Sequence record: OK272487.1
DNA: 48,988 nucleotides
Direction: 5' to 3' (one strand)
Source: Escherichia phage JLBYU09
Under the pieces are notes generated by a model, which did no database searches, had not been told where the DNA came from, and saw only the letters and a list, made by a program, of their open reading frames with translations. The position numbers and the translations under genes were made by a program. The stretch's first letter is position 1. The number at the start of each line of letters is the position of its first letter. Below, piece by piece: positions 36,045 to 37,753 of this stretch.

Positions 36045-36749
36045 TTAGCAACCGCAGCAGCCAGTCGGCGGAGTCGCCGGAGTAGGCAACTTGAAGTTTA
36101 CCAGTTGCTCGACCTGGTTGATTTTGCAATTCAGTGCGGCGGTCTGGTTTGCCTGAGAAAGAGCAAAACGAGCCTCCTGCAACTGAGCTTTCATATCACA
36201 AATCAGAACAGCCTGAGAATCAGCGAACTGTTGACGAATCAGATCTCGCGTTGCATTGCCTTGTCGCTCAATATTCAGGTTTGTCTCACAGCAACATCTC
36301 TCCGCTGCAATCTGTGCCTGATAGGAACGCTCAAGAGCATTAACATCAGCAGCATTAATCGCAGCAACTGTCTGGTTAGTACCGCTAACAATCGCGGTAT
36401 TCAGTCCGGCGAAACCTTGCACCGATGCAAGCAGGTTTTGCGTATTCTGGCTGGTAATGCCGTTAAAGGTTGATGCGGCGGAGCGCTCAACGGCAAGGTT
36501 TGTGGAGTTTTGGCCTTGCAGAGTTTGCAGCCCCAGGTTGTTTACGCCTGTCTGGATGTTATTAATACCATCAAGAACAGCGTTAGCACCGACAGCAACA
36601 GCCGCACCATCACCACCATAACCACCACGACCATTAAAGCCGTTACCAAACCATGACCCAATCAGGCCGCCAACAGCACCGCCAAGTCCAGCCGCGCCAG
36701 CTTCGCCACCAAAACCACCACCAGTAGGGAGTAAAGTCATATCCGACAT
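36045..36749 (-). CDS. glycine-rich, Cys-clustered protein; possible fibre-tip adhesin or secreted factor
   Basis: Start moved to ATG 36749 (MSDMTLLPTGGGFGG) after AGAGGA RBS; Gly-rich N-terminus, Gln/Asn-rich middle, C-terminal CCC...C...C...CCGC; own terminators on both sides. Confidence 0.5.
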   Translation of the reverse strand: MSDMTLLPTGGGFGGEAGAAGLGGAVGGLIGSWFGNGFNGRGGYGGDGAAVAVGANAVLDGINNIQTGVNNLGLQTLQGQNSTNLAVERSAASTFNGITSQNTQNLLASVQGFAGLNTAIVSGTNQTVAAINAADVNALERSYQAQIAAERCCCETNLNIERQGNATRDLIRQQFADSQAVLICDMKAQLQEARFALSQANQTAALNCKINQVEQLVNFKLPTPATPPTGCCGC

Positions 36750-36885
36750 AGTAAATTCCTCTTTGACGTTAAAAAATATTAAAAAAGTTTGTAACACTCT
36801 CGTTACGACAAAGAGTATGCGCCTAACTGTCAGGAATAGATATAAAACATTTGTAAGCGATATGTCAGCAAATGGCATAAAGACG

Positions 36886-36926
36886 AAAAAAGGCGCAGCC
36901 TAAGCCGCGCCTTGTGATTATTTTTT
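36886..36926. terminator. terminator-like hairpin (bidirectional)
   Basis: GGCGCAGC-ctaa-GCCGCGCC flanked by A-run and T-run, after the stop of the fibre gene. Confidence 0.45.
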
Positions 36927-36927
36927 G

Positions 36928-37753
36928 TTAACTCTCAAGAGTTGTTGGCTTGTTGATCAATGCAGAAACAGCCGCTTTTAACTCCTCTATTTCTTCTCTC
37001 ATTGATTTCAAGTCTTCTTCTTGCTCCTTACATACCTGAAGTAAATATGCTGAAATTGCTGAGTAATCAACTTGTAAAAATTCAGCTTTACCTATTAACT
37101 CACTTCCGTCTTTCGTCGGCCNNNGNAGANANNNATAATCCTCAAAAGTGCTAACAGCNNNNNNGAACTCCAGTTTCAGATGTNTTNNCGTTTNNCNNNG
37201 AAGTCTTCGCGGCACTAGCCGAGTTAGCAGCATTAGTTTCCGATGTTTTAGCCGCATTCTTACTTGCATTAGCTGCATTTTCAGATGCTTTGGCATTAGT
37301 TTCCGATGTTTTAGCGTTTGTCTCAGAAGTCTTCGCAGCGCTGGCGCTTTGTTTTGCTGATTCAGCGCCTTGCTTGACTTGATTTACAAGATCCTTCAAT
37401 CCTTCAAGATCGAAATCTCTAAAAAATTCAAGTGCGTCAGCGATCTCTGTTTCTTTGCTTTGATAGTAACGCAATGTTTCAGCTACATCTTGAGCAAGAC
37501 CATCAACAGTTATTGAGTCATGAAGTAAGATCGCGTAATTTGAACGGGCAACTACCGCGCCACCAGTTGTAATTGCACGAATGCTTGTATCGTTAATAAC
37601 TTCAGTTATCACGGCAATCTGCAACGGCTGAGTTAAAAATACAATAGTTGCACCAGGGCGAATGAGCGTTAGTTGCTCTCGCCATTTTGTGTCGTATCCA
37701 GTGATATAACCTTGCGCGTCCATTGACGCTTGTCCTGTTCTGTAAATTGCCAT
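36928..37753 (-). CDS. tail fibre protein with lambda Stf-like repeats (interrupted by N-run)
   Basis: Track ORFs 37151..37813 and 36928..37296 are one gene split by Ns 37122-37200; start at ATG 37753 after GGAGAAAG RBS; repeats [36 protein letters not shown] match the recalled lambda Stf repeat region. Confidence 0.55.

Follow-up and report, generated by a model that had tools for sequence, protein, structure and literature searches.

Escherichia phage JLBYU09 (sequence record OK272487.1) is represented here by a window of 48,988 nucleotides (nt), which is the whole stretch of DNA that was analysed. Between positions 36,045 and 37,753, its minus strand carries a tail fibre gene that is broken in the record and, downstream of it, a gene named here gene A, which encodes a glycine-rich, cysteine-clustered protein of 234 amino acids (aa). 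Judged by its sequence, the window is a Hanrivervirus-like relative of T1. Escherichia phage JLBYU41 (Drexlerviridae, Tempevirinae, Hanrivervirus) is 99.3% identical to it over window positions 35600-38000 and 99.7% identical over 36000-48988, the two stretches compared, and other Hanrivervirus phages are 91-97% identical to the window. The genes on the minus strand follow the order transcription regulator, primase, fibre, A, B, C, D, and end facing the convergent ssb gene. The features from the fibre gene to gene A are the following.

37835-37819, minus strand: terminator-like hairpin upstream of the fibre gene
37172-37753, minus strand: 5' part of the fibre gene (codons 1-194), with the conserved N-terminal virion-attachment domain and KTSETNA-type repeats; assigned by identity to T1 ST26, a PHROG tail-fibre match and collinearity with nt 1-582 of the JLBYU41 fibre gene
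37122-37199, minus strand: patchy N calls around a join at 37158-37172, including an N run at 37159-37164
36928-37158, minus strand: 3' remnant of the fibre gene, holding the final ~75 codons, which lie beyond the Peptidase_S74 core, and the stop codon; aligns to residues ~723-798 of the JLBYU41 fibre
36890-36913, minus strand: intrinsic-terminator-like hairpin after the fibre gene, with a 10-bp stem and a T run; the same element occurs in CAjan
36750-36889, minus strand: leader of gene A, with the TATnCT-like hexamer CATACT (36819-36814), a 6-bp hairpin of GUAAC(N)/tetraloop type (36806-36791) and the Shine-Dalgarno sequence AAAGAGG (36764-36758)
36045-36749, minus strand: gene A, for the 234-aa Gly-rich, Cys-clustered helical protein (phrog_9288)
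36019-36038, minus strand: terminator-like hairpin after gene A

An earlier note, made from the letters of the window, had described a terminator and a leader of about 180 nt before the 234-aa reading frame and a further terminator after it. This layout is correct: hairpins lie at 36913-36890 and 36038-36019, and the spacer from the fibre stop codon to the ATG of gene A (36749) measures 178 nt. Gene A ends in a double stop, TAATAA.

The lateral tail fibre gene

The fibre open reading frame (ORF) starts with an ATG at 37753 and has its stop codon at 36928-36930. It encodes 7-aa repeats of the KTSETNA type, as the earlier note had recognised. Tandem Repeats Finder detected no tandem array in the DNA beneath these repeats, which are seen at the protein level only. 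The proposed likeness to lambda Stf also holds. Residues 1-127 share 59% identity with the T1 tail fibre ST26 (E = 1e-52), and the protein matches PHROG tail-fibre families, with phrog_24159 'tail fiber protein' at E = 1.8e-72. Homology of this degree identifies the gene as an ordinary Drexlerviridae lateral tail fibre of the lambda Stf/T1 ST26 type, a kind that is already known. Its location away from the main tail module agrees with the synteny observed with JLBYU41, JakobBernoulli and T1, in which the fibre locus adjoins the primase, between the primase/helicase and recombination genes and apart from the main tail operon. Such a separate locus for the lateral tail fibre is a known arrangement in Drexlerviridae (PMC8594841).

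The intact fibre gene of JLBYU41 comprises 2397 nt and encodes 798 aa, with a Peptidase_S74 intramolecular chaperone at residues 673-724. The window is collinear with this gene up to codon 194 and resumes at about codon 718, and codons ~195-717 are absent. The join links position 2329 of the JLBYU41 locus to ~3899-3914, which leaves ~1570-1584 bp missing, the Peptidase_S74 domain included. The two halves of the fibre gene are in different frames across the join, and the 5' part (582 nt) and the 3' part (~230 nt) together make up about one third of the intact gene. In its N-terminal attachment domain and its locus near the primase, the gene resembles T1-like lateral fibres (T1 ST26; the lambda Stf or HK97-type side fibre with a C-terminal Peptidase_S74), but the S74 domain is found in the JLBYU41 gene, whereas the copy in the window is an out-of-frame, collapsed remnant.

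The earlier note had seen the gene as broken by one N run at 37122-37200. The break itself was confirmed, although the Ns form several short patches rather than a single run, with the join at 37159-37164 and ~1.57-1.58 kb absent. This gap is probably an assembly or consensus join at a variable region, and thus an artefact rather than biology, because N-marked joins recur in the record at variable regions between near-identical blocks. Alternatively, the fibre gene may have suffered a real deletion. The receptor-binding part of the fibre is missing from the record and the true fibre allele of the phage is not in the sequence; host range is not to be inferred from it.

Gene A and its family

The protein encoded by gene A begins with MSDMTLLPTGG. 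It carries 21 glycines within residues 1-56, with the Gly block limited to residues 9-48, followed by a Gln/Asn-rich middle and cysteines at positions 152-154, 184, 208, 231, 232 and 234, in agreement with the polyglycine N-terminus, Gln/Asn-rich middle and C-terminal Cys cluster first described for it. A longer reading of 277 aa from an ATG at 36878 was considered and discarded as a merely open upstream frame; the Shine-Dalgarno sequence AAAGAGG precedes the MSDM start, and this start is kept in all relatives. The G+C content of gene A (0.515) is the highest in the genome, compared with 0.442 +/- 0.023 in 700-nt windows. Its Gly and Ala codons account for this value, and a foreign origin need not be invoked.

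Gene A matches phrog_9288, a family of 'unknown function', with E = 6.6e-124. No meaningful match was obtained in Pfam, NCBIfam or PADLOC for any of the proteins A-D. A Pfam scan of A at E <= 10 returned only two chance-level matches, neither of them GP38, and no metal-binding family was among its Pfam or NCBIfam matches. A search of 5.8 billion proteins retrieved 230 relatives, most of them on contigs of 45-65 kb and the named ones all 'hypothetical', and an exhaustive search of 50%-identity representatives gave only 91 related clusters. The relatives are confined to phage-type contigs. Among annotated phages, A is present in Hanrivervirus and other Tempevirinae, Seuratvirus, Nonagvirus, Sashavirus, Eiauvirus and PY100-like Yersinia phages. 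In T5-like Epseptimavirus it occurs as a remnant, and other T5-like records match A only partially. Phage Sfin-1 (PMC6714547) does not carry the cassette to which A belongs. The sequence of A has already been deposited repeatedly as 'hypothetical protein'. By these searches the family is uncharacterised, and A matches neither an unrelated intracellular family, an outcome that the earlier note had thought damaging to its reading, nor any other characterised one. Such annotations as do exist ('sugar-binding', 'TerL', 'matrix protein', 'transcriptional regulator') were unsupported by any search made. Literature searches with PHROG identifiers, with Drexlerviridae and glycine-rich, and with T1-like virion proteomics yielded nothing on gene A, and no virion proteome was found for any phage carrying it.

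The alignment of 40 diverse members defines a signature. It starts with MxDMxLLP, continues with AGLGGAxGGLIGSWFGNGWGG, a QGF-AGLNT motif and a nearly invariant CCC that is followed by ExxATRxL, and closes with an LCDxKAKIxxLE helix and a variable Thr/Pro tail. Only close relatives have the C-terminal CCGC, and other branches have different Cys-rich tails (such as GCGC or CNCNC). A mimicry of the tape measure protein was also examined and rejected, as a marginal match to phrog_167 (E = 0.007) was unsupported by profile comparison with the phage's own tape measure protein (probability 0.3%).

The conserved cassette

Three further genes follow gene A on the same strand.

35675-35998, minus strand: gene B, 107 aa (phrog_9157); His/Asp-rich and variable at the N-terminus, conserved and helical in its C-terminal domain
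35169-35660, minus strand: gene C, 163 aa (phrog_8329); of the neighbours of gene A, the most constant
34925-35182, minus strand: gene D, 85 aa (phrog_7239), with which the cassette ends
34916-34936, detected on the plus strand: terminator-like hairpin between gene D and ssb

The order A-B-C-D was found in ~35 fetched loci, with conserved lengths for B (~105-125 aa), C (~162-182 aa) and D (~81-94 aa), and more distant loci retain A-B-C or A-C. Drexlerviridae are the only group in which a fibre with the Hanrivervirus-type N-terminus adjoins A, apart from a weak match in eiAU. In T1, the fibre gene is followed directly by terminators and the next module, and A-D are absent. Since A-B-C-D recurs, the fibre partner is restricted to Drexlerviridae and the T1 fibre lacks A-D, the comparison of loci indicates that the conserved unit is A with its three downstream genes, and not the two-gene module of fibre and glycine-rich protein that had been proposed. 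The cassette is a mobile, self-contained accessory unit with A at its head. In Drexlerviridae, it lies among replication and recombination genes. The T1 site equivalent to the hairpin at 34916-34936 is annotated as a facing terminator pair.

The families of B, C and D are all PHROGs of unknown function. At default thresholds, B-D matched only such PHROGs, and no characterised transporter or immunity family was among their matches. In gene B, a hypervariable poly-His/Asp N-terminus (HHHHYHH in relatives) is joined to a conserved C-terminal domain with the motif IVEMEYxELM...KELTDLAAACI. Its best PDB profile matches are weak (2p06, E = 0.1; HisE 1yvw, E = 1.6; all-alpha NTP-pyrophosphatase type) and it has no Pfam match. 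A MazG/HisE-like nature of B is a weak lead only.

Relatives of A have also been found outside the enterobacterial phages. A first scan of the genome collection, with an alignment of distant homologues of the enterobacterial type, gave no match. When 185,579 species genomes were scanned with the hydrophobic-head branch of the family, 15 relatives were recovered on contigs of metagenome-assembled genomes (MAGs) assigned to Lachnospiraceae, Clostridia, Oscillospiraceae, Bacilli and Christensenellaceae, with one assigned to Prevotella. The binning of MAG contigs may err, as the Prevotella assignment hints. On the Firmicutes-assigned contigs, A is part of a different recurrent cassette, which is inserted at varying positions of the phage genome. 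Taken at face value, the presence of relatives on these contigs makes a function tied to the diderm periplasm or outer membrane unlikely for the A family as a whole. In the Firmicutes-type cassette, a helix-turn-helix/sigma-like gene comes first, followed by a Gln/Asn/Tyr-rich protein and a small Gln-rich one. A is next, and after it come a small membrane protein, two proteins of ~140 aa and 230-290 aa, and an ORF whose motif is HEXXH-like. The small membrane protein has the same GWW...FGW motif as the A branch. The HEXXH-like ORF, its motif judged by eye, is possibly an ImmA-type peptidase.

Predicted structure of A

The earlier note had proposed structure prediction, which was carried out for A. 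AlphaFold2, run with the family alignment, predicts a single straight helix over residues 55-220 (~165 residues), with a local confidence score (pLDDT) above 85 for residues 140-215, and a disordered head. The protein is termed a helical rod and not a coiled coil, because its hydropathy periodicity is not heptad-like. In residues 55-130, the Gln/Asn-rich first half of the helix, hydrophobic residues recur with a period of 11 residues (3.67 residues per turn, p = 0.006); the Cys-bearing second half has neither this nor a heptad periodicity. The C-terminus is a Pro/Thr/Cys tail with no transmembrane segment.

A helix of this length bears on the proposal that A is a bacteriocin-like or secreted toxic factor. 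Glycine-rich hydrophobic segments occur in class II microcins, and the N-terminus MSDMTLLPTGG superficially ends in Gly-Gly. The proposal was weakly tested and found no support: A has no family match, the cassette no recognisable exporter or immunity gene, and inspection revealed no signal peptide. A protein of 234 aa with a 165-residue helix is also unlike microcins, and the family is restricted to phages as far as its contigs tell. A toxic secreted role is hardly credible for A.

The N-terminal segment of A reaches a maximal 19-residue Kyte-Doolittle mean of 1.13, which is sub-threshold for a transmembrane helix, and displays a GxxxG glycine-zipper pattern. At the equivalent position, distant homologues, those on the Firmicutes-assigned contigs among them, carry a genuinely hydrophobic helix with Trp on its flanks (LVILFLILIMGF, mean 2.27; WWVIILFALIFGW). 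Membrane insertion and topology of A are uncertain, because its own segment is weakly hydrophobic and lacks a positively charged flank.

The disordered head is compatible with a different view, in which A would be a cytoplasmic rod or scaffold. Its CCC and C-terminal cysteines would bind metal or form a redox switch, the Gly head would be disordered and self-associating, and A would work with C, D and a possibly NTP-pyrophosphatase-like B in nucleotide- or stress-related host takeover or in anti-defence. The near invariance of CCC and the recurrence of Cys-rich tails fit this view, as do the variable poly-His/Asp N-terminus and weak MazG/HisE-like match of B, the lack of a signal peptide and of charged flanks in A, and the setting of the Drexlerviridae cassette. 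Opposed to it are the bona fide Trp-flanked hydrophobic helix of the distant homologues, the non-significant match of B (E = 0.1) and the absence of metal-binding families among the matches of A. A cytoplasmic role is considered unlikely.

The family profile was also compared with all PDB sequences. Among the 60 matches listed, the only protein was influenza HA2, with its fusion peptide and adjoining helix, at E ~0.002. The motif LGGAVGGLI-GSWFGNG aligns with LFGAIAGFIEGGWTGMV; common to both are a Gly ridge that includes aromatic residues and, behind it, a helical region. The native score was 19.6 bits, compared with a maximum of 14.5 in 5000 shuffles preserving the composition of each segment. 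None of the 5000 reached the native score, and the resemblance is therefore not compositional. With hhalign, 16 columns were aligned at a probability of 40%. HA2 differs in its heptad-repeat hairpin and C-terminal membrane anchor, both of which are missing in A, a single straight helix. The resemblance is probably a convergent glycine-ridge motif and not homology.

A membrane-type segment followed by a long helix with cysteines recalls a further group of phage proteins. I-spanins of the lambda Rz type combine a membrane-type segment at the N-terminus with a long helical domain and conserved cysteines. A could by analogy be a lysis-related envelope protein that disrupts or fuses membranes late in infection, much as an i-spanin, a disruptin or a holin accessory factor does, and the fusion-peptide-like motif, together with one contig in which A stands beside small membrane proteins and a lysozyme-like ORF, would suit such a role. 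Nevertheless, A lies outside the lysis genes. JLBYU41 carries a holin-endolysin-Rz-like cassette and a Cor-like exclusion gene, both away from A-D, and because JLBYU41 has both, the present phage is inferred to have them too. No lipoprotein partner (an ORF with a lipobox, as for an o-spanin) adjoins A, T1 lyses its host without A, and the family extends to contigs assigned to Firmicutes, which as monoderms have no use for spanins. A function of A in lysis is very improbable.

Leader and expression signals

The leader of A has a conserved order. A TATnCT hexamer is followed after 7-8 nt by the GUAAC(N)-tetraloop hairpin, then by TTTAAC and the Shine-Dalgarno sequence, and this arrangement is common to Hanrivervirus, Queuovirinae, Eiauvirus and one T5-like phage. 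With RNAalifold, the GUAAC hairpin was the sole consensus structure. Its closing pair varies between GU, AU and CG, and G-U pairing is retained in two variants of the arms. At this leader position, other hairpins are found in more distant lineages. In the eiAU leader, a sigma-70-like TTGGCA-17-TATTCT lies in register and ends 7-8 nt before the hairpin. These signals make an independent promoter for A plausible, and the leader element could be a 5'-terminal mRNA stem-loop or an operator. GTAAC-N6-GTTAC was also considered as a general operator and set aside; it occurs once in the window, which is not significant alone, and its support is positional conservation only. An Rfam scan of 34800-38000 at E <= 1 gave just three chance-level matches, on the primase terminator.

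The ATG of gene B lies ~12 nt past the T run of the A terminator, which leaves no room for a promoter. Owing to this short distance, B-D would be reached by read-through, and since read-through past the A terminator would be their only supply, A should be made in excess. It is the first and probably the most strongly expressed gene of the cassette.

Selection, loss and relation to the virion

In JakobBernoulli (phage Bas07 of the BASEL collection), gene A carries 10 synonymous changes relative to that of the window, together with one conservative substitution and a nonsense mutation at Q78 (CAA -> TAA). In the T5-like phage polluks, gene A is a multi-stop pseudogene with a degraded CCC motif and a retained conserved leader. 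The absence of A from T1, its nonsense allele in the viable JakobBernoulli and its decay in polluks show that A is dispensable. From these alleles, gene A is under purifying selection in nature yet dispensable for laboratory plaque formation.

These observations bear on the suggestion that A is a fibre-tip adhesin similar to gp38 of T-even phages. A and gp38 have in common glycine-rich sequence and a gene position after the fibre gene. In gp38, C-terminal glycine-rich motifs are interleaved with hypervariable segments (10.64898/2026.04.02.716166). By contrast, A has a single Gly block, N-terminal in location, and a conserved helical remainder; it gave no GP38 match in Pfam, and it does not co-vary with the fibre, being 97-100% identical among phages whose fibres differ. 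The S74 chaperone of the intact fibre, the lack of A in T1 and the JakobBernoulli nonsense allele count against the adhesin as well. The comparisons argue that A is not a virion adhesin.

More broadly, A might be a virion component, such as a helical whisker, a fibre- or needle-like protein or an adhesin on the lateral fibre, whose hydrophobic N-terminus would be buried until contact with the host membrane. In Hanrivervirus, Queuovirinae, Eiauvirus, T5-like phages and some unclassified contigs, tail or tail-fibre genes immediately precede A, and in some Firmicutes-assigned contigs A stands between the portal and capsid genes. A helical rod of ~24 nm with Cys clusters able to form interchain knots, and a motif that resembles the HA2 fusion peptide, would also suit a virion protein. 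However, T1 lacks A, and the gene carries a nonsense codon in a plaque-forming phage and has decayed in the T5-like phage examined. It remains nearly constant next to differing fibre alleles, and is separated from a fibre with its own chaperone by a terminator and a conserved leader. No structural family was matched beyond the marginal tape-measure PHROG described above, and the constant partners of A are B-D, of which B is enzyme-like in looks. In addition, the site after tail and fibre genes is a boundary between modules, of the kind at which accessory genes often accumulate. A structural role in the particle is regarded as improbable.

Possible function of gene A

The best joint explanation of the locus, which can be put forward only tentatively, is a collapsed but ordinary fibre gene followed by gene A as the lead of an accessory cassette, with A acting as a membrane-inserting envelope fitness factor. 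In this explanation, A would be transcribed from its leader and/or by read-through of the fibre terminator, and its own terminator would attenuate transcription into B-D, leaving A in excess. The N-terminal segment would insert into the cytoplasmic membrane. A would then oligomerise along the helical rod, with the Cys clusters stapling the oligomer via disulfides or metal. At the cell envelope, the protein would be a non-essential fitness factor, most plausibly protecting the infected cell from superinfecting phages or causing other interference at the level of the envelope. With low confidence, A may thus be considered an accessory protein that is dispensable and targeted to the membrane, where it could for instance exclude superinfecting phages.

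Proteins with such a role are known from other phages. Terminator-bounded membrane proteins of the 'moron' type, encoded beside host-recognition genes, exclude superinfecting phages; HK97 gp15, T5 Llp, T1/phi80 Cor and T4 Imm are examples. A resembles them in its position after tail-fibre genes, its own leader and terminator, its dispensability and its putative membrane-type segment at the N-terminus. It differs in having no sequence or fold relation to them, in being far larger and rod-like, and in always occurring with B-C-D in enterobacterial phages, so that exclusion by A would be an analogy.

Several points weigh against a membrane-inserting exclusion factor. The segment of the enterobacterial A proteins is below the usual transmembrane hydrophobicity and has no positively charged flank, AlphaFold2 leaves residues 1-54 disordered, and the helix shows no 3.5-residue heptad periodicity, so that a coiled coil is not established. 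No promoter above the scan threshold was found in the window's own A leader, nor in that of CAjan. The location of A directly after tail or tail-fibre genes in several lineages, and among head genes on some Firmicutes-assigned contigs, would also fit a virion protein. A shows no homology that would point to a specific function, and PADLOC gave no match. Finally, a Cor-type exclusion protein, Cor being a superinfection-excluding membrane protein (PMC13164509), is already encoded by the phage.

A bolder proposal can be derived from the same features. A might found an unrecognised class of membrane-active phage rods, with a fusion-peptide-like glycine-zipper head, a ~24 nm helix stapled by the CCC knot and a Cys-rich tip, which would perturb or bridge host membranes convergently with viral fusion proteins. 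Such rods would be present in phages of diderm and, by MAG assignment, monoderm hosts. In enterobacterial phages they would be accompanied by three partners, of which at least C shows no recognisable known fold, and placed under a conserved 5'-leader hairpin. This proposal is a long shot.

Nothing in these results is surprising so far. The unassigned four-gene cassette is widespread in well-used coliphages and Salmonella phages, from Hanrivervirus and other Tempevirinae to Seuratvirus, Nonagvirus, Sashavirus, Eiauvirus and the PY100-like phages; it is well defined and readily testable with existing phages. T5-like phages retain of it only a remnant of gene A. Gene A combines a distinctive architecture with natural loss-of-function alleles and its own conserved regulatory leader, and the BASEL collection already holds an intact allele (KarlJaspers) as well as the nonsense one (JakobBernoulli). 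If A were an exclusion or envelope-acting factor, it would have a bearing on the mutual interference of phages in cocktails.

The sequence record

The window contains 126 Ns in scattered patches.

1481-1569, 3004-3023, 3867-3886, 6018-6044, 8717-8740, 9122-9142, 37122-37199 and 45918-45957: N patches
1544-1569, 3867-3886, 6018-6044 and 9122-9142: non-fibre patches at joins, differing from JLBYU41 by 546, 263, -32 and 36 bp

Five of the patches coincide with joins of differing length relative to JLBYU41, the fifth being the fibre join (1584 bp), and the blocks between the join patches are 99.0-99.97% identical to JLBYU41. Because five N patches fall on such joins, the whole record looks like a gapped or consensus assembly, in which further genes may be collapsed. 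Like the fibre site, the four other sites are probably assembly joins.

About 20 unannotated records named 'Campylobacter phage' (host C. jejuni; MG065636 = A16a, MG065637 = A15b and ~18 others) are 93-99% identical to the window genome. Their resemblance to this E. coli T1-like genome suggests that they are probably mislabelled or contaminant phages.

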